Source: a virus (lineage: Duplodnaviria > Heunggongvirae > Uroviricota > Caudoviricetes). Taken from it: a stretch of 10,855 bases of DNA. The position numbers and the translations under genes are program-made. This document shows positions 698 to 10,855 of this stretch, piece by piece (position 1 is the stretch's first letter; every line of letters starts with the position of its first letter). The DNA is taken from IMG/VR virus record IMGVR_UViG_2537561727_000012. One strand, given 5' to 3'. The notes beneath the pieces are model-generated. The model made no database searches, had not been told where the DNA came from, and saw only the letters and a program-made list of their open reading frames with translations.

Positions 698-1060
698 GGG
701 GCTGATTCTGGATTCGACGGGATTTGCGAAACCCAAGGTGCATGCCGAGGGGCGGTTGGCCTCGTAAAAAGCCGCAAAAAATAGTCGCAAACGACGAAAA
801 CTACGCTTTAGCAGCTTAATAACCTGCTTAGAGCCCTCTCTCCCTAGCCTCCGCTCTTAGGACGGGGATCAAGAGAGGTCAAACCCAAAAGAGATCGCGT
901 GGAAGCCCTGCCTGGGGTTGAAGCGTTAAAACTTAATCAGGCTAGTTTGTTAGTGGCGTGTCCGTCCGCAGCTGGCAAGCGAATGTAAAGACTGACTAAG
1001 CATGTAGTACCGAGGATGTAGGAATTTCGGACGCGGGTTCAACTCCCGCCAGCTCCACCA
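698..1060 (+). ncRNA. ssrA: tmRNA (transfer-messenger RNA, 363 nt)
   Basis: Starts GGGGCTGATTCTGGATTCGACGG and ends GGGTTCAACTCCCGCCAGCTCCACCA (tRNA-like acceptor/T-arm with encoded CCA). An internal tag reading frame at 787..819 (gca aac gac gaa aac tac gct tta gca gct taa) encodes ANDENYALAA-stop, the enterobacterial degradation tag. Confidence 0.93.
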
Positions 1061-1979: not shown

Positions 1980-3080
1980 TTATTCCATTTCAAGATCACT
2001 TATCCTCACTTCGAGTTCAATGCTGGTTGTAAAACCGTTATCCGGGCTGACGGTATGTGTCAGGGTGGTAATGGTCCATTCCGCATCATCTATCGGCTGT
2101 TTAAAGCCACTGACTTTCACTGGCATTTCCGTGTAGAGATCTGCCCGCCCTTCTGCCAGTTGTAGCGAAAATGACGCAACACCGCGTTGCAGGCGTTCCC
2201 ACTGCATTTTCGCTGCCCGTTCGGCGTTACTCCGATTGGCATAGGTGCGATTAAGTACCAGCACGTTTTCATCCGTACCCACCAGGTAATCGCCCTGCTT
2301 CGCTTCCGGCTCTTTCTTCTGCTTCTTAGTCCTGCGCTTACGCTTCACCGTGGTGCTTTCTTTCTTCGCGGGTTCGCGGGTATGCAACCAGCTGGCAATT
2401 ACTCCCGTGTAGGCTCCGCGATCTGCCAGGGTAAAGCGGTGACTGTCGCCGTCCTTGCGTGTGATAGAGATCACCGGCAGTGGTTTACCAGTGGCGCTTT
2501 TGCCCTGCCCCTGCCGGATGAATAACAGATTGCCATTTTTCACCGACGCAATAGCACCGTACTGGCGCGCCAGCCGCATCAGAAAACTGCCGTCACTCTC
2601 ATTAGTCTGGTCTATATGTTCCACGGGCTTATCCGACAGGTCTTTACCCAGTGCCATCTTCAGCTTGTGACGCGCGGCTATTTCCTTCACCACTTCCCCG
2701 ACGGTGGTCTTATGCCACGATTTTTCACGGCGGGTATTCAGCGTTTCCCGAAAATCAGCACTTCGCGCCCGGATAGTCAGGCGGTCCGGTGCGCCAGTGT
2801 GTTCAATCTCGTCCACTGTGAATGCCCCTTTCGGGAAAAGCGGCTGCCCCTTCCAGCCCAGCGCCAGCGTAATGACCGCACCACGGCGCGGCAGCACGAT
2901 TTTTCCGTCAGCGTCATCCAACTCCAGATCAAGCTGGTCCGCTTCAAAGCCCCGGTTATCCGTCAGCGTCAAACTCATCAGGCGGTTATCCAGCACAGTG
3001 GTGATATCCCTGCCCTCAATACTGATGCTGAATGCGGGAGTTTTGTTGCCTTTGTTAAGCAGTTCTGAGCTGAAATTCAC
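1980..3080 (-). CDS. D: Phage late control / tail protein D (gpD family)
   Basis: 366-aa ORF in the P2 position between U and ogr. Its start overlaps the U stop by 4 nt (ATGA). It carries an unusual Lys/Arg-rich insert (see findings). Confidence 0.85.
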   Translation of the reverse strand: MNFSSELLNKGNKTPAFSISIEGRDITTVLDNRLMSLTLTDNRGFEADQLDLELDDADGKIVLPRRGAVITLALGWKGQPLFPKGAFTVDEIEHTGAPDRLTIRARSADFRETLNTRREKSWHKTTVGEVVKEIAARHKLKMALGKDLSDKPVEHIDQTNESDGSFLMRLARQYGAIASVKNGNLLFIRQGQGKSATGKPLPVISITRKDGDSHRFTLADRGAYTGVIASWLHTREPAKKESTTVKRKRRTKKQKKEPEAKQGDYLVGTDENVLVLNRTYANRSNAERAAKMQWERLQRGVASFSLQLAEGRADLYTEMPVKVSGFKQPIDDAEWTITTLTHTVSPDNGFTTSIELEVRISDLEME

Positions 3081-3562
3081 GACAGCAGCCCTCCCACCGT
3101 TTTACTGATATCGCTTAAGGCAGACGTTGCCGTGTCCTGCAGATTATTCAGTTGCGCACTGAGATCACCGAACATATCGGACAGGGATTCATCCACTCGT
3201 TTGAGCGACAGGGTGAACTCAATCCGGCGCGGCATACCGTCGCGGAAAAACTCCGTTTTAGTCTGATTAAGTCCCTCAATCACATACATGCCGTAAATCG
3301 TGCCGCTGCCTTCAATCAGGGGCCATGCTTTCCCCTGTTCTGCCATCTGCTCCAGTGCCAGCAACGACAGCCTGCCGCCTGTTATCTCCGGCATAAGAAC
3401 ACCGGAAAGCGTCAGCATGTCGTTTTCCGGTCCCAGAAACTGCGTGGACGGACGTCGGTTTACCCGACTGTTTGCCGCATGTCGCCAGCTGCGTTGATAC
3501 TGCAGTTCCTGATACGGAACGGTGCGCAGCATAAACACGTACAATCCCAGCACCATCATCAT
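3077..3562 (-). CDS. U: Phage tail protein U (gpU family)
   Basis: 161-aa ORF (MMMVLGLYVFMLRTVPYQELQYQRSWRH...) in the P2 position between T and D. The first ATG overlaps the T stop (ATGA); the true start may be the second or third Met. Confidence 0.85.
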   Translation of the reverse strand: MMMVLGLYVFMLRTVPYQELQYQRSWRHAANSRVNRRPSTQFLGPENDMLTLSGVLMPEITGGRLSLLALEQMAEQGKAWPLIEGSGTIYGMYVIEGLNQTKTEFFRDGMPRRIEFTLSLKRVDESLSDMFGDLSAQLNNLQDTATSALSDISKTVGGLLS

Positions 3563-6500
3563 GCGTCGTATCCCCCCTGATCGCTGTAGTTACTCCTGGC
3601 TTTTGCCTTCAGCCTGCGTTCACGTTCATCAAGCTGGCGTGCCACCTCCCGCGCAATATCCTGCGCACTTTGTCCTGGCTGCGTCTGGATGATGATCTGC
3701 GTCGGTGCCTCAATCCGGTAAACGGGCGGCACAGTGGCTGCGCGACTCACCATCGCTTCACCGCCTTTCGCGGGAAGCGCCACAGGATGCAACGGTGGAA
3801 GCTCTGCTGGCGCGGCAGCAACGCCCATCATTCCGGCAACAACGGCAGCTAGTGCAGCTGTATTTCTCCGGCTGGTCACATTTGCCGGGCCGTTAACAAT
3901 TTCCGGCCCGTTTTCACCGACGATGCCAAACTGCCCGCGCGGGATATAGCCGCCGCTGTCATACATCCCCGCAAAGCCATATCCCCATGACGGAAAACCA
4001 CCCGATGGCATCATCACTTTACCGTCTGCATTCACCGTCGCAGGTTGCTGACGCGTCACGCTTTCCGGCAGTTTCGCCTTTGCAGCCTCTTTACTGACAA
4101 TGCCGAGTTTCTCCAGCAACCAGGAAACGCCGGATTTCAGGGAGTCCAGCGGATGCATGACCATATTCAGCCCTTCCGCCAGTGCCTCCCCGAATCGTCG
4201 CCCCATTGCCGCTGCACTCTGCAGTTCGGCAGAGGTCGACTTAACGGGCGTCAGCAGATCAGTAAACCAGCCCCACAGCGCCTGTACTTTGTCGCCAATC
4301 CACTGAAACACAGGCTTAAGTGGTTCGAATGCAGCACTGATGGGACCTGCCGCCGCTTTGAATCCTTCCACCACGCCGCCGAGAAATGCGGTGATGGGTT
4401 GCCAGTATTTCCAGACAACCAGCGCCACGCCCGCCAGTGCAGTAACCACAAGACCTATCGGACTGAGCAGAGCACCTAACAGACCAGATATGGCATACAG
4501 GGCAACGCGCAGCATCGCCAGCGGACCAGATGCAAGCACACGAAGCACCGCGCCTGCGGCAGCCAGTCCACCGCGCAGTACCGCCAGAGGATTCATAAAC
4601 ATCACAGCAACAGCACGTAAAGCGGATAATCCAGACCGCAATAGTGCAACCGGCGCACCTGCTACAGTTTTCAGGACATTTCCCGTCAGTGATGCCGTAC
4701 GGCGCAAAGACGACAACGGCGCAGTAAGTAAACCCGCTGCGTTACCCGATGAAGCAAGCCCGCGTCGCAGCACTGCCAGTGGAGCGCCAGCCAGCCAGAA
4801 CAACGCGCTGCTGGTTCGTGTTACTGCTGCCGTAACGGAAGGTAACGTTTTGATGCCCAGCACAGAGAATCCCAGACGGATGACTGCCAGCGGCCCCAGC
4901 ACTGCAGCCAGCGCCACAGCCAAGGTGCCGAGGCCTACGGTAACCGCAGCCACAATAGCGGCTACTTTCATCAGTGTGCCCGTCAGTTCCGGGTTAGCTT
5001 CCACCCAGCGACGCAACGCTCCCGTAACGCTTTTCACCGTGTACAGAATATCCATCAGCGGCTGGCGCAGCGTTTCGCCCAGGCTGCTGAAGGTATTCTG
5101 CGCTCCGGTTTTAACCAGCAACCACTGAGCAGAAAGTGAGTCCTTGTTGATGTCGGATTCTTTCTGCATGGAACCGAGCGCATCATTGCCCGCTGTCAGT
5201 TTTAGCTGGCGCTGTAGTTCCGGCAGGTTGTTTGCCAGTTTCGCCGCGTCATCGCCAAACTCTTTACCAAACAACATGGTCATGGCAGACAGACGCTTGT
5301 CCTGCGGCAGTGCGTTCACCTTCTCCAGCACACGCTGGATAGTTCCCATCGCATCCTTCGTCATCTGCTTTTCAATCACTTCAGGATTGAGTTTCAGCAG
5401 ATTCATCCCTTCAAAGAAACTCTTGCTTTGCATGGTGGCAATGGACAATTCACGCACCATCGCGTTTGCTGCACTGGCAGCAACCTCCGGCGCAGCACCC
5501 AGAGTCAGGAAGGTGGACCCCAGCGCCGCCGCTTTACGATAATCCAGACGGTCAGCCACACCGCCCAGACGTTGCATCACATCGATGATGTCCGCCCCTT
5601 TCGACATGGCGTTATCATCCAGATAGTTCAGCGCATCACCGAGCTGTTCAATATTGCGGGTAGGTATTTTGTAGAGCTGGGCGATTTTCCCCAGACTTTC
5701 TGACAGTTCATCCGCTGGCAGCTCAAAGGCTGTTGCCGCCTTTGCCGCCGTACTGGCGAAGGCCAGCAGGTCACGTTTCTGGTCTTCCCAGCTGTCGTCA
5801 GGGTTTGCGACGTTCATACGCGCACCACCTTCAACCAGTGCAGCGAAGTCCACCGCACCGTTTTCCATCGGCAACTGTTCGCTGGCAGCCTTGATGGCAT
5901 CCTGCATTTCATAAAAACGTGCAGTACGGTTTCCATTATCGTCACGCAGACCATTGACCTGCTTTGCCACACCTTTCATGGCATCTTCTATGCTGGTATA
6001 GCTTTTTACTGCCGCCATCACTGGCGTCCCCATTGCCAACCCTGCAGCCGTGGTAGTGGCTCCGGCTCCTGCAATACGATCGCGCACCTCCAGCGAACGG
6101 GCATAACTGGCACGCGCCGCATTCATCCTGCGCTGAGCTTCCCCCAGTCGCTTCAGCCGCGCCTCCTGTTTCCACAGTTCCTGGTTATAACGTGATGTTT
6201 CACGGGCTAAACGGGCAGTTGCTCCCGCATCATCTTTCGCAGAAATTCCCGCCCGGTACAGTTCTGCACGCACAAGCGCCGTTTGCTTCTGCAAATATTT
6301 TTGTTGTTCTTCCAGGCGTTGGACTGCCAGCGTTTGCCGACCTAAAGCCACAAGGTGCCGTTGTGATGGTTGTTCCATCGCCTCCAGCTCAGAGCTAAGC
6401 AAATTAGCCTTCTGTCTGGCATAGTTCAGCCTGTCGCCTAACTTCTTGTTATCGGCCTGCAGCTTGCGAAATTTTTCCAGGCTGTTACCCACCTGATTGA

Positions 6501-6636
6501 GTTGCTTTAATGCGTCACGGGAGTTTCTGATTGCGCCAGCCAGCTCTTTCGAACTGGCCTGTGCAGCACGGAATGGGCGGGTGAGTTTGTCAACCGCATT
6601 AAGAATGACCTGCAGGCGCAGGTTGTTATCACTCAT
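3559..6636 (-). CDS. T: Tail tape measure protein (gpT family)
   Basis: 1025-aa ORF with N-terminal coiled-coil-like segments and a central Ala/Gly/Leu-rich hydrophobic repeat region, in the P2 position after E/E'. Start MSDNNLRLQ overlaps the E' stop. Confidence 0.9.
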   Translation of the reverse strand: MSDNNLRLQVILNAVDKLTRPFRAAQASSKELAGAIRNSRDALKQLNQVGNSLEKFRKLQADNKKLGDRLNYARQKANLLSSELEAMEQPSQRHLVALGRQTLAVQRLEEQQKYLQKQTALVRAELYRAGISAKDDAGATARLARETSRYNQELWKQEARLKRLGEAQRRMNAARASYARSLEVRDRIAGAGATTTAAGLAMGTPVMAAVKSYTSIEDAMKGVAKQVNGLRDDNGNRTARFYEMQDAIKAASEQLPMENGAVDFAALVEGGARMNVANPDDSWEDQKRDLLAFASTAAKAATAFELPADELSESLGKIAQLYKIPTRNIEQLGDALNYLDDNAMSKGADIIDVMQRLGGVADRLDYRKAAALGSTFLTLGAAPEVAASAANAMVRELSIATMQSKSFFEGMNLLKLNPEVIEKQMTKDAMGTIQRVLEKVNALPQDKRLSAMTMLFGKEFGDDAAKLANNLPELQRQLKLTAGNDALGSMQKESDINKDSLSAQWLLVKTGAQNTFSSLGETLRQPLMDILYTVKSVTGALRRWVEANPELTGTLMKVAAIVAAVTVGLGTLAVALAAVLGPLAVIRLGFSVLGIKTLPSVTAAVTRTSSALFWLAGAPLAVLRRGLASSGNAAGLLTAPLSSLRRTASLTGNVLKTVAGAPVALLRSGLSALRAVAVMFMNPLAVLRGGLAAAGAVLRVLASGPLAMLRVALYAISGLLGALLSPIGLVVTALAGVALVVWKYWQPITAFLGGVVEGFKAAAGPISAAFEPLKPVFQWIGDKVQALWGWFTDLLTPVKSTSAELQSAAAMGRRFGEALAEGLNMVMHPLDSLKSGVSWLLEKLGIVSKEAAKAKLPESVTRQQPATVNADGKVMMPSGGFPSWGYGFAGMYDSGGYIPRGQFGIVGENGPEIVNGPANVTSRRNTAALAAVVAGMMGVAAAPAELPPLHPVALPAKGGEAMVSRAATVPPVYRIEAPTQIIIQTQPGQSAQDIAREVARQLDERERRLKAKARSNYSDQGGYDA

Positions 6637-7065
6637 CGTTGGCCCCGCTTCTCTGAATCGCTTTATACCGCCATTCCAGCACTTCGGTCAGCGGCATAAC
6701 GTCAGTAACGGATGGCGGCCAGTGAAAAATGGTGGCGATATCTGCCACCAGATCGTCAACCGTCAGGCTGTCGGTAAACCGGCAAGCACCGACTTCTTCA
6801 ACAAAAAAGTGACAACCTCAACCGACATGGCAGTGAGATCTGCCGGGTCCATCTCTGCAATTTCCTGTGCAGTCAGTGCCGGGCTGGAGATGCGGGGGAT
6901 CACGGTCATCATCGCGTTCACATCCATATCCATAATCGCCTGCAGGCGTGTACCGCGCAGCGCACCGGACTGCGGTTTACGCAGCACAATTTCGGTGATT
7001 TCTGTTTTACCGCGCTTGATGGGGGTATCCAGTTGAATGGTCTTTTCAGTCTGCTTATCGCTCAT
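6629..7065 (-). CDS. E+E' frameshifted tail assembly chaperone (predicted -1 frameshift product)
   Basis: Shifting -1 at the heptamer extends E by about 57 residues (VEEVGACRFTDSLTVDDLVADIATIFHWPPSVTDVMPLTEVLEWRYKAIQRSGANDE). The extension's stop overlaps the T start codon, matching the P2 E/E'/T arrangement. Confidence 0.6.
6763..7065 (-). CDS. E: Tail assembly chaperone E (gpE family), zero-frame product
   Basis: 100-aa ORF immediately upstream of T. It contains the slippery heptamer T-TTT-TTG near its 3' end, as in the P2 E / E+E' pair. Confidence 0.8.
   Translation of the reverse strand: MSDKQTEKTIQLDTPIKRGKTEITEIVLRKPQSGALRGTRLQAIMDMDVNAMMTVIPRISSPALTAQEIAEMDPADLTAMSVEVVTFLLKKSVLAGLPTA
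6802..6808 (-). other. Programmed -1 ribosomal frameshift site (slippery heptamer TTTTTTG)
   Basis: Minus-strand sequence ACT TTT TTG in the E frame (plus-strand CAAAAAA, 6802..6808). The -1 frame stays open from here to a TGA at 6629..6631. Confidence 0.6.
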
Positions 7066-7119
7066 TTTGCTGTCCTGTAAATTGGGTTCTGGCGCGGTAT
7101 CCCGCGCCGTTCAGATATA

Positions 7120-7635
7120 TCAGAGGCCGAGGGCGTTGCGGTGCGCTTCCATCAGGTCCACACCGTCCACAATTTCCACCATGTTGATAAGGTCCACTTC
7201 ATAGAGCACCTCACCATTGATGGTCAGCTTCGCGTAGCTGTTGGTACTGGTCACTTTGGTGGTGTTGCTTTCGCCCGTCTTCCACTCGCCGGAATCCACT
7301 TCTTTGTGACGTCCACGCACCACAAGCTCCACGGCCTGCACTTCTCCGGTATCGTCACGCTGGATAGAGCCGGTAAAGCGCAACTGGATGCCATCCACAG
7401 TGGCTTTGCCCATCTGCTTAAACAGCAGCAGTTCAGTACCACCAATGGAAAATTCTGTGTCCAGAGCACTGTCATCAAGCCCCAGATCCACATCCACCGC
7501 CCCCGGCATTCCGCCGCCGCGATACTTCTCATATTTGCGGGTGAATTTCGGCAGCGTCAGCGACTCTACGATCCCCTGCCAGTTGTTCCCGTCGTTAAAC
7601 AGGTTCAGATGTTTTAATTTGCGTGGTAAAGCCAT
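7120..7635 (-). CDS. FII: Contractile tail tube protein (gpFII family)
   Basis: 171-aa ORF (MALPRKLKHLNLFNDGNNWQG...) immediately downstream of the sheath gene, in P2 order. Confidence 0.9.
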   Translation of the reverse strand: MALPRKLKHLNLFNDGNNWQGIVESLTLPKFTRKYEKYRGGGMPGAVDVDLGLDDSALDTEFSIGGTELLLFKQMGKATVDGIQLRFTGSIQRDDTGEVQAVELVVRGRHKEVDSGEWKTGESNTTKVTSTNSYAKLTINGEVLYEVDLINMVEIVDGVDLMEAHRNALGL

Positions 7636-7644
7636 GTTGTCCCC

Positions 7645-8817
7645 TTACGCGCTGACCTGGCTGGCAAAATTCACCAGGTACTGATCGGTGATGCGCTGGC
7701 GCAGCATCAGATTTTCAAGTGGCGGCACTGGCGTGTAGTCATAGTCGATGGTGAGTTTTCCGGCTTTCAACGTGTCTTTGTCGTTCACCGACTCATCCAG
7801 CCAGCAATCACCACCAATGAGATACCCCTGACTGACCAGGCTGCGCATTTTGGCGCGGATACCTTCGATAATGTCGCGAGCCAGCGACGGATTCAGCGGT
7901 TTGTCCACCGCCCACATGTGCGCTTCTGCCATCGTGTCCGTCAGTACCTGCGCGGTTCGGGTGTAGTTTTCGAAGGCAAAGAGCGGGTCATCACTCAGAC
8001 AGCGGGAACCCCAGAAGCGGAAACCGTCTTTGCGGATAAGCGTGGTAACGTCGTTCTGGTTAAGCAGACCTGCATCGGTTGCCGGGTCCTGCAGATCCCA
8101 GAACACATCAGCAGAAATTCCGGTGACACCGTTCACGCCCACGTTGGACAGGCTTTTGTGCCATCCGGTCTGCTCATCAATTTTGGCGCGCAGACCGAGC
8201 GCACGAGCAGTGGCATATGCCGTTGCTTCGGCATTCAGCACCGTGTCCCAGCCCGTAAAGTCAGGCCAGATCAGCATCCCTTCGCGCTGGCTGAAGTTTT
8301 CACGGTAAGTGATCGCCTCCTGTACCGTCTTGCAGCCATACGCTGACAGGTAAGCAAACCCACGCAGGCTTTGCGCCACGCTCAGCAACTCAGTCGCAAC
8401 GGCTTTGTTATCGTGGCCTGGCACGCCGAGAATGCGCGGTTTAACGCCGAGCTGTGTCTGGGCAGATAACAGGGCTTTCATGCCTGTTTTTTTACCTTCA
8501 GCAGTCACTGCGCCGATGATATTGGTCGTGGTTTCTTCTTCCGTTTCACCCTGCGGCACACGCACAACAACGGTCACGGGTTTTGCCTGGTCAGCGATGG
8601 CATCCAGCGAACGGGCCAGCGTGCCGGACTCACCCGCTTTACCGCTGGCAGTCAGCACATCAGTGATCAGCACGGGTTTATTAAGAGGAAACATTTTTGC
8701 ATCGGCATCATCGCCCGTGCAGACCATACCCACGATGGCGGTGCTCACCGTGGTAATGGATCGGGTGCCTTCGTTGATTTCAACAACGCGCACCCCGTGG
8801 TGGTAATCCTGAGCCAT
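7645..8817 (-). CDS. FI: Contractile tail sheath protein (gpFI family)
   Basis: 390-aa ORF ([25 protein letters not shown]...) with an AGGAGG Shine-Dalgarno 8-13 nt upstream of the ATG; first gene of the FI-FII-E-T-U-D block. Confidence 0.9.
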
Positions 8818-8893
8818 AGCGGCGAACCTCCTGATTGGATTAGGCTTCGCCCTATGTTGAAGTGATTGTGCCCGACAAACAGCTAAGTGTAGT

Positions 8894-8911
8894 TGTACAG
8901 TTATTCACACA
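8894..8911 (-). promoter_or_regulatory. Candidate Ogr-responsive late promoter element (TGT-N12-ACA dyad) upstream of FI
   Basis: Minus-strand TGTGTGAATAACTGTACA ends 76 nt upstream of the FI ATG. P2-family late promoters carry a TGT-N12-ACA activator site centred near -55; spacing here is compatible if transcription starts about 25-30 nt before the ATG. Confidence 0.35.
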
Positions 8912-8959
8912 AAATGACGGTATTTGTCTACTTGCAGGGATAATCAAAATTATGCTGAT

Positions 8960-9526
8960 TCAGGGGGATTCACTGCTCTTATTTGCCGGAAATTTTCTAT
9001 AAATGGTAGAAACGCCCACATCAAAAATCAGTGCAATACGCTGTCTTGATTCTCCGGCCTCTAGTAAACGTCCAATCTGTGCCCACTGTTCGGTGGTCAA
9101 CTTAGGACGGCGTCCACCTACTCTGCCTTTGTCGCGAGCTGCAGCAATCCCCGCTCTGGTACGTTCAACTATCAGTTCGCGTTCCATTTCAGCCAGGGCA
9201 CCCATGACATGAAAAAAGAAACGGCCCATTGGGGTACTGGTATCAATACTGTCAGTCAGGCTTCGGAAATTCACGCCACGCTGGCGCAACTCTTCTATCA
9301 GCGTAACAAGATGCCGCATACTGCGTCCCAACCTGTCCAGCTTCCAGACAACCAGCGTGTCTCCTGCCGATAGTGTCCTGAGTAGTTTTTTCAGCCCCGG
9401 TCTGTCGGACTTAGTGCCACTGATTTTGTCCTCAAAAATCCGCTCACATCCCGCGCAGTTCAGTGCATTACGTTGCAAATCGGTGTTCTGGTCATTTGTT
9501 GACACGCGTACATAGCCAATAAGCAT
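8960..9526 (-). CDS. Serine DNA invertase (Hin/Gin/Pin/Cin family)
   Basis: Translation from the third Met (MLIGYVRVSTNDQNTDLQRNAL...GDTLVVWKLDRLGRSM...C-terminal HTH) closely resembles e14 Pin and Mu Gin, with the catalytic Ser in YVRVSTNDQ. The ORF-track start at 9532 adds MI; the 9526 ATG has the better Shine-Dalgarno spacing. Confidence 0.9.
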   Translation of the reverse strand: MLIGYVRVSTNDQNTDLQRNALNCAGCERIFEDKISGTKSDRPGLKKLLRTLSAGDTLVVWKLDRLGRSMRHLVTLIEELRQRGVNFRSLTDSIDTSTPMGRFFFHVMGALAEMERELIVERTRAGIAAARDKGRVGGRRPKLTTEQWAQIGRLLEAGESRQRIALIFDVGVSTIYRKFPANKSSESP

Positions 9527-9553
9527 GATCATTCCCCTGAATAAAAACCGGAG

Positions 9554-10087
9554 ATGATGCCAGTTAGCTGTTACCTCTGCATTTTCTTAAACGTTGGTTT
9601 GGGAGAAGGCTCTGCATTACCTGTTGGTGTGCCTGTTCCGTGGCCTTCCGCCACTCCGCCGACAGGCTGGCTGAAATGCAATGGTGCGGCTTTTTCTGCT
9701 GAAGAATACCCGGAACTGGCAAAGGCTTACCCGACAAATAAATTGCCTGATTTACGCGGTGAGTTTATTCGTGGCTGGGATGACGGACGTGGAGTGGATA
9801 ACGGAAGGGGATTATTAACGCTTCAGGACGGTGCGATTGTCAGTCATAACCACTATTGGGGAATCTGGACTTCACGAACTAACGACCAGACTCTGGAAAG
9901 TTTTACAGGCACCACGATTTTAAAACAAATCACGCCCCTGTCTCCGGCCATTGACTTCGATAATTACCCAATTCCCAACCCGGCTATTACAGAGGGTGGT
10001 GTTGTTGCGGCAACGACTAAACCTGCAGGTGCGAATGAAACACGCCCACGAAATGTCGCTTTTAACTATATTGTGAGGGCTGCATAA
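9554..10087 (+). CDS. Tail-fibre C-terminal variable segment, alternative (currently silent) cassette
   Basis: The translation (…PVGVPVPWPSATPPTGWLKCNGAAFSAEEYPELAKAYPTNKLPDLRGEFIRGWDDGRGVDNGRGLL…RPRNVAFNYIVRAA) is typical of the receptor-binding C-terminus of Mu S / P2 H-type fibres. It is on the opposite strand to the late operon and has no constant N-terminal part, so the first ~18 codons of the ORF (spanning the crossover site) are probably not native. It would be fused to the constant part after inversion. Confidence 0.7.
   Translation: MMPVSCYLCIFLNVGLGEGSALPVGVPVPWPSATPPTGWLKCNGAAFSAEEYPELAKAYPTNKLPDLRGEFIRGWDDGRGVDNGRGLLTLQDGAIVSHNHYWGIWTSRTNDQTLESFTGTTILKQITPLSPAIDFDNYPIPNPAITEGGVVAATTKPAGANETRPRNVAFNYIVRAA
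9582..9607. other. Candidate invertase crossover site (hix/gix/pix-like 26-bp imperfect palindrome)
   Basis: TTTTCTTAAACG-TT-GGTTTGGGAGAA has the AAAC(C)-nn-GGTTT centre of Din-family sites. It lies between the invertase start and the beginning of the fibre variable segment, the position gixR occupies in Mu. Confidence 0.4.
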
Positions 10088-10689
10088 TGAATAACGCAGA
10101 ATTAAACAGTGAATTAATTGCCACTATGGCAGGAGAAATTACTGTTTATAACTTTGATGTCATGAGTCGGGAATATATTTCAGCTTCAACTGAATATCTT
10201 GCTATTGGTGTCGGCATTCCGGCATATTCCTGTTTAGATGCCCCAGGCGCATACAAAGCTGGTTATGCAATCTGCCGATCTGCAGATTTTAACTCATGGG
10301 AATATGTGCCAGACCATCGCGGTGAAATCGTCTTTAGCACCGAAACAGGAGAATCAAAAGAAATCACAGCTCCGGGTGATTACCCTGATAATACAACCAC
10401 TATCGCCCCGTTAACGCCATACGATAAATGGGATGGTGAGAAATGGGTGACAGATACTGAGGCACAGCATAATGCCGCAGTAGACGCGGCAGAAGCACTG
10501 CGCCAGTCACTTATTGATGCAGCAATGGCTTCCATTAGTCTGATTCAACTGAAACTACAGGCCGGACGGAAGCTGACGCAGGCAGAAACCACCCGACTTA
10601 ACGCTGTGCTGGATTACATTGACGCGGTGACGGCAACAGATACCAGCACCGCGCCGGATGTCATCTGGCCTGAACTGCCGGAGGCGTAG
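10087..10689 (+). CDS. Tail fibre assembly protein (Tfa / Mu U / P2 G family), alternative cassette
   Basis: 200-aa ORF whose ATG overlaps the stop of the fibre segment (TAATG). The conserved N-terminal part and variable C-terminus are typical of tail-fibre assembly chaperones. Confidence 0.85.
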   Translation: MNNAELNSELIATMAGEITVYNFDVMSREYISASTEYLAIGVGIPAYSCLDAPGAYKAGYAICRSADFNSWEYVPDHRGEIVFSTETGESKEITAPGDYPDNTTTIAPLTPYDKWDGEKWVTDTEAQHNAAVDAAEALRQSLIDAAMASISLIQLKLQAGRKLTQAETTRLNAVLDYIDAVTATDTSTAPDVIWPELPEA

Positions 10690-10855
10690 GCCATTCAATA
10701 TCTGGCGCACTGGAGGAATCAACCAGTTCCAGTGCGTCCAGATAATCCAGCCACAAATTATATTGCGCCAGTTCATCATCTTTCAGACGACCAATAGCGG
10801 CTTTACCGGGCCATTGCTTACTGTTCATGTATTCGTTGGCCTGGTTAATTAGTAG
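10661..10855 (-). CDS. Tail fibre assembly protein, second copy in opposite orientation (3' part only; 5' end beyond window)
   Basis: The minus-strand frame reads …LLINQANEYMNSKQWPGKAAIGRLKDDELAQYNLWLDYLDALELVDSSSAPDIEWPTPPAVQAR-stop, a characteristic Tfa C-terminus. It converges on the plus-strand tfa and overlaps its 3' end by 29 nt (10661..10689), as for U/U' at the centre of the Mu G segment. Confidence 0.7.
   Translation of the reverse strand, partial: LLINQANEYMNSKQWPGKAAIGRLKDDELAQYNLWLDYLDALELVDSSSAPDIEWPTPPAVQAR

Follow-up and report, generated by a model that had tools for sequence, protein, structure and literature searches.

A P2-like prophage remnant of Escherichia coli with a probable pixR-type crossover site for a Pin-family tail-fibre switch

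In the window (the whole analysed stretch of 10,855 nucleotides), positions 9582-9607 are very probably the invertase-proximal, pixR-type crossover site of a Pin-family tail-fibre switch, carried by a P2-like prophage remnant at ssrA in E. coli. Comparison of public assemblies showed that inversion, as read from the assembled sequences, flips a segment in which two fibre-tip cassettes converge, each accompanied by a chaperone gene of its own. Either cassette A (Collar/StfE-like) or cassette B (gp53-like) was thereby shown to be fused in frame after ...AGLLAYL/GLGE, and the other one then stands behind a leader ORF near the invertase. The system is a pix/Pin system in a P2-like backbone; it is already known and not novel. 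A 26-bp site that had been called by eye could be verified purely from public assemblies, which are frozen in either one or the other orientation.

Results

Sequence and rarity of the crossover site

The following features were found in the window.

1-483: smpB, at the start of the window
698-1060: tmRNA gene ssrA
8960-9526, minus strand: Pin-family serine DNA invertase, 188 aa (Pfam, identity to PinE, match to the Gin structure)
9437-9508, minus strand: putative Fis-dependent recombinational enhancer, inside the 5' end of the invertase gene (homology to the annotated P1 cin enhancer)
9554-10087, plus strand: invertase-proximal ORF, consisting of a 14-codon leader MMPVSCYLCIFLNV, GLGE and cassette A (ORF list, Pfam Collar)
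9582-9607, plus strand: highly probable pix-type crossover site, 26 bp, invertase-proximal (exact sequence, uniqueness, match to pixR)
9594-9595, plus strand: central TT dinucleotide (2-bp core position in the published Din-family table; inside the identical run 9594-9608)
10087-10689, plus strand: tail-fibre assembly chaperone of cassette A, TfaE-like, 200 aa (Pfam Caudo_TAP, 3.7e-32)
10661-10855, minus strand: 3' end of a convergent second chaperone gene (cassette B) that leaves the window, corresponding to 8575-9018 (minus strand) in genome L007

The 26 bp at 9582-9607 consist of TTTTCTTAAACG (outer half), TT (core) and GGTTTGGGAGAA (inner half), which is the Din-family layout of two imperfectly inverted 12-bp half-sites flanking a 2-bp core. 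The 26-mer was unique in the window when both strands were searched with up to 3 mismatches to itself, and it was matched in none of 200 dinucleotide-preserving shuffles of the window, which served as the chance control for site matches. Additionally, a degenerate dyad pattern of the Hin/Gin/Cin/Pin type was written as TTNTCNNAAACCNNGGTTTNNGANAA and scanned at up to 3 mismatches. Its sole match in the window was again 9582-9607, where 17 of the 18 specified positions agree and the single departure is G12 in place of C; none of the shuffles (0/200) gave a match. The bare 12-nt centre AAACNNNGGTTT was found seven times in the window at up to 1 mismatch, compared with 2.6 expected. The bare centre is therefore not rare, and the significance rests on the full 26-mer. 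By analogy with related sites we infer that staggered cleavage and strand exchange occur at the TT of 9594-9595.

When further crossover sites were searched for at up to 4 mismatches to the consensus, only two were found in L007 and only two in L012, another genome with the same remnant. A multiple-inversion system of the Min or shufflon type was rejected on these counts and the single consensus-like site of the window. A weak terminator-like hairpin on the minus strand (9546-9565), between the invertase start and the site, is probably due to chance (1 found, 0.5 expected). Scanning 9300-9800 for sigma-70 promoters gave none.

Match to published pix sites

In the published table of Din-family sites pixR is given as TTCTCCCAAACC AA CGTTTATGAAAA (PMC3241671). 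The reverse complement of the window site is TTCTCCCAAACC AA CGTTTAAGAAAA, identical to the published pixR at 25 of 26 positions. The pinE-proximal site of the K-12 prophage e14, TTTTCATAAACG TT GGTTTGGGAGAA, is one base apart from the window site, which has T and not A at position 6 of the outer half; after its site, e14 continues with the cassette sequence that is found in the window too. The T variant at this position also borders the flipped segment in genomes L011 and L012. The first-pass annotation had called a 26-bp Din-family-like site here by eye and regarded its left half as degenerate. Exact sequence, uniqueness in the window and identity to pixR uphold the call, and the left half proved to be the normal outer half of pixR.

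A 2025 study located the inversion of the e14 P segment experimentally at the inverted repeat TTGGTTTGGGAGAAGG (PMC12529663), and window positions 9594-9609 are identical to this 16-mer. Sequencing and PCR of clonal K-12 cultures have revealed both e14 orientations side by side (PMC4272514). The e14 P segment is also inverted in trans by Pin-type invertases whose genes are elsewhere in E. coli, and once Pin has inverted it, the e14 protein StfE2 reportedly prevents phage T2 from adsorbing (PMC12529663).

The adjacent invertase and a putative enhancer

The site lies upstream of the invertase gene, 55 bp from its start. We placed this start at the ATG at 9526 (MLIGYVRVST...), as annotated in relatives; the listed ORF begins two codons earlier, at 9532. 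The protein contains the Pfam domains Resolvase (7.3e-53) and HTH_7 (1.2e-15), is 86% identical to K-12 PinE and matched the Gin structure 3uj3 with E=7.6e-93. In the YVRVS motif it has Ser where the crystallised chain of 3uj3 has Ala.

Inside the 5' end of the gene, positions 9437-9508 align with nt 19-90 of cin, with 56 of 72 positions identical in a stretch that is under coding constraint. These nucleotides of cin are annotated in NC_005856 as 'enhancer of Cin-mediated C-segment inversion'. Synonymous-site conservation was weakly raised in the putative enhancer (5/19 codons vs 9/91, Fisher p=0.065, four sequences).

Inverted partner site

The genome L007 (GCA_015472365.1) was found through an exact match to the 200-aa chaperone. 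Its 8769 bp that correspond to window 2087-10855 are 100% identical to the window, and a position in L007 equals the window position minus 2086. The candidate site has its copy at L007 7496-7521. An inverted partner had been expected in the fibre gene downstream of the window, and it was present on the minus strand of L007 at 10492-10467 (window-equivalent 12553-12578), reading TTCTCGCATACC TT GGTTTGGGAGAA. The partner is found about 2.9 kb downstream, beyond the end of the window, and is absent from the window itself. Both sites have in common the core TT, the inner half and one more base, which together make a 15-bp run (window 9594-9608); the outer halves disagree at 5 of 12 positions. In L001 and L002, which are more distantly related, the pair of site and partner ranked first among the inverted repeats of the region.

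Inversion and breakpoints in assembled genomes

For the flipped state we compared L007 with L012 (GCA_902810115.1) and L011 (GCA_045344525.1, NZ_CP148546.1), which contain the same prophage remnant. The flanks of the segment are 100% identical to L007 in L012 and ~99.9% identical in L011, both flanks being in one orientation, and the segment of L011 and L012 (99.93% identical) is opposite in orientation to that of L007. The strand switched at L007 7505-7522, corresponding to window 9591-9608, and at L007 10466-10480. In this comparison of assemblies the breakpoints thus fell at the site, where the first-pass annotation had anticipated them, and they were resolved to the 15-bp identical run 9594-9608, core included, not to the dinucleotide. 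Since both orientations occur in near-identical genomes, the flip is recent. It may have been made by the adjacent invertase or, as has been reported for e14, by Pin-type invertases that are encoded elsewhere and act in trans. An assembly of this locus may legitimately have either orientation.

The flipped state was also found in L008, a complete P2-like prophage, and between L001 and L004 cassettes A and B are swapped reciprocally, fibre side versus invertase side. Homology blocks across E. coli genomes also start or stop inside the site: among the 60 matches listed for a 601-bp probe that spans it, 16 ended at query 308-310 (window 9607-9609) and 14 started at query 290-295 (window 9589-9594). 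For phage records, 21 of 25 among the matches listed began at query 690-695, which is likewise window 9589-9594.

Fibre cassettes, chaperones and reading frame

The C-terminal domain of ORF 9554-10087 was assigned to Pfam Collar (8.9e-16), and cassette A is StfE-like. The exchangeable part extends from the core (9594/9595) onward, with distinguishable cassette A sequence from 9609. The chaperone gene of cassette A is located inside the invertible segment, and the identical 200-aa chaperone occurs in both orientations and in P2-like, Mu-like and e14-like backbones. Cassette B is gp53-like, and its chaperone, encoded at L007 8575-9018 (minus strand), has 147 aa and a Caudo_TAP domain.

In the 513-aa fibre protein of L008 the junction reads ...KDVAGLLAYL/GLGE/GSALPVG... 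(slashes separate the constant part, the GLGE motif and the cassette), and the core TT forms bases 2 and 3 of Leu codon 350. The corresponding junction is ...AYL/GLGE/GSALPVG... in L012, which is cassette A, and ...AYL/GLGE/AAKRDVG... in L007, which is cassette B. The constant/variable junction ...DVAGLLAYL/GLGE is followed by cassette A in L008, L011 and L012 and by cassette B in L007, and in L008, L011, L012 and L004 cassette A continues the constant part of fibre protein H in the same reading frame. The codon phase of the core TT is the same across L007, L008 and L012 and the fusions are all in frame. As both cassettes are in the same codon phase at the junction, inversion swaps the fibre tip together with the co-oriented chaperone gene, just as it does in Mu G, P1 C and e14 P. 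The site had earlier been placed at the constant/variable junction beside the invertase gene, and this agrees with the 55-bp distance to the gene with Resolvase and HTH_7 domains and with the frame at ...AYL/GLGE.

The cassette beside the invertase had been described as a silent fibre cassette with the site at its start. The site is indeed in the 5' end of the Collar-domain ORF, and 'silent' calls for correction in that the ORF has its own in-frame ATG (9554/9557). With this ATG and a leader the cassette is a stand-alone ORF, like StfE/StfE2 of e14. Relatives annotate it as a separate 'phage tail protein', but it is in fact a fibre-tip cassette that lies behind a crossover site and can be exchanged.

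Whether the backbone was P2-like, e14-like or Mu-like, all invertase-proximal sites that we examined came after an in-frame ATG and a leader of 13-14 open codons. Examples are MMPVSCYLCIFLNV followed by GLGE in the window (9554-9595), MMPFACYFFIFINV in e14 and MPLVSRMVILKNV in L009; the cases outside the window are at 5631 (minus strand) in L006, 9424 (minus strand) in L009 and 7496 (plus strand) in L010. Shared ancestry of the module of invertase and site could explain the conservation of the leader equally well.

Cassettes A and B and the identical 200-aa chaperone were observed in three unrelated tail backbones, which are Mu-like (L009 and L014), e14-like (L010, baseplate) and P2-like (L008). 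In the Mu-like L009 and L014, window 9589-10855 was matched at 99.8-99.9% identity, starting exactly at the crossover site. In the P2-like L008, window 9591-10855 was matched at 98.9% identity, and again the homology started at the crossover site. Because homology starts exactly at the site in unrelated backbones, the invertible segment moves between phages as a site-bounded module.

Prophage context and decay

Identity to prophage-free E. coli (up to 100%) ends at 1061-1062, immediately after ssrA, which identifies the host as E. coli and places the prophage at the 3' end of ssrA. Beyond this junction come an ogr/Delta-like gene and gpD. The P2-type tail module is on the minus strand and comprises gpD, gpU, a 1025-aa tape measure, gpE, tube and sheath, and then comes the invertase. 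The remnant is without baseplate, lysis and capsid genes, and L012 is additionally without window 4835-7201, part of the region from tape measure to tube.

In the source genome the cassette is received by a fibre gene of which a 5'-truncated remnant is left. Its ORF begins inside the constant part and is ~227 N-terminal codons short in comparison to L008. In L007 10107-12254, outside the window, the truncated fibre gene adjoins a fragment of the portal gene, and beyond this fragment are a TIR-domain gene, an ORF without a Pfam match and replication genes. The TIR-domain gene and the neighbouring ORF are possibly defence cargo. Because the receiving fibre gene is 5'-truncated, the switch is at present unable to alter the host range of any viable phage.

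The segment also carries an IS903-like element of 1059 bp at L007 9018-10076 (window-equivalent 11104-12162), which is bounded by the inverted repeats GGCTTTGTTGAATAAATC and has duplicated 9 bp of its target, ATTCGTTCA. It interrupts the ATG of the distal chaperone gene and is absent from the near-identical L011 and L012.

Discussion

By analogy with Hin, Gin, Cin and Pin, dimers of the adjacent serine invertase would bind the site at 9582-9607 and its inverted partner ~2.9 kb away in the fibre gene. The two sites would then synapse, probably with Fis bound to the putative enhancer in the 5' end of the invertase gene, and both would be cut with a 2-nt stagger at the TT core. Rotation of the subunits by 180 degrees and religation would complete the inversion.

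The 5'-truncated fibre gene, the portal fragment and the 1059-bp IS903-like element in the L007 segment all mark this prophage as a remnant, and they could suggest that the site is a relic, inactive in a decayed prophage through its variant outer half, through a dead or unexpressed invertase or through the lengthening of the segment by the IS. The 9300-9800 scan gave no consensus promoter in the interval from invertase gene to site, which would fit with an unexpressed invertase. However, the invertase still has an intact ORF with the catalytic Ser motif and 86% identity to PinE, which is active, and the remnant occurs in both orientations, each time with this variant half-site, between flanks that are 100% (L012) or ~99.9% (L011) identical, which argues for a recent inversion. 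Pin-type invertases also act in trans on the e14 sites, whose inner 16 bp are identical to those of the window site (PMC12529663). We therefore consider an inactive relic very unlikely.

It could also be argued that the sequence is a mere conserved coding motif of a GLGE hinge, with homology breaks that come from general or illegitimate recombination of fibre modules. The inner half-site does encode G-L-G-E in every cassette, the same cassettes are found in P2-like, Mu-like and e14-like backbones, and tail-fibre genes are notoriously mosaic. Yet the outer half on the invertase side is outside any constant region of a fibre and still keeps the TTxTC..AAAC half-site pattern, and the 26-mer agrees with the dyad consensus at 17 of the 18 specified positions. 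The exact reciprocal inversions switch within 15-18 bp, which is too short for efficient RecA-dependent exchange, and a dedicated invertase is adjacent in all loci examined. A hinge motif without a recombination site is hardly credible in the face of these observations, and a pixR-type crossover site of a Pin-family switch is by far the best explanation of 9582-9607.

The wider interest of the locus is that an intact pair of invertase and site persists, and is evidently still flipping, in a badly decayed prophage. This persistence fits recent claims that such switches can be co-opted by the host. Following the example of e14 StfE2, the switch in this dead prophage might be kept for the benefit of the host, where it would toggle a free-standing receptor-binding domain made of the leader and either the Collar or the gp53-like tip. 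We regard this as unlikely, but if true, the site would belong to a recombinase-operated switch against phages and not to a host-range switch with a silent cassette.

Comparison with known inversion systems

The locus resembles e14 in several ways. The 26-bp site is identical to pixR at 25 of 26 positions, and its inner half, core and next two bases make up TTGGTTTGGGAGAAGG; the invertase is 86% identical to PinE, and its distance to the site is 55 bp in the window and 54 bp in e14. In both, an StfE-like cassette with a TfaE-like chaperone after it stands next to the invertase, and both prophages are defective and continue to invert the segment. In contrast, the backbone of the window is P2-like (sheath, tube, gpE, tape measure, gpU and gpD, at ssrA), whereas e14 is lambdoid. 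The outer half of the fibre-side partner is TTCTCGCATACC here and CTCTCGAAAACC in e14, and cassette B diverges from that of e14 just after GLGE.

With the G segment and Gin of Mu and the C segment and Cin of P1, the locus shares the order of constant fibre part, site, Sv-U, U'-S'v, site and invertase. As in Mu, the invertase gene has its 5' end towards the site, the 12-2-12 layout is common to gix and cix, and a stretch homologous to the annotated cin enhancer is present as in P1. The core is AA/TT here, as in pix, cix and hix, whereas it is GA in gix, and the half-site sequences differ. The segment is 1.93 kb long without the IS, in comparison to ~3 kb in Mu and 4.2 kb in P1.

The closest named phage among the matches listed was the P2-like Escherichia phage pro483 (NC_028943), which matched 86% of window 8900-10855 at 94.5% identity. 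The annotations under this match are 'DNA invertase', 'tail collar fiber protein' and two assembly proteins. The E. coli prophages L001, L002, L005, L008 and L013 have the same gene order as the window. From P2-like phages with an invertible segment the locus differs in that the copy in the window belongs to a deleted remnant.
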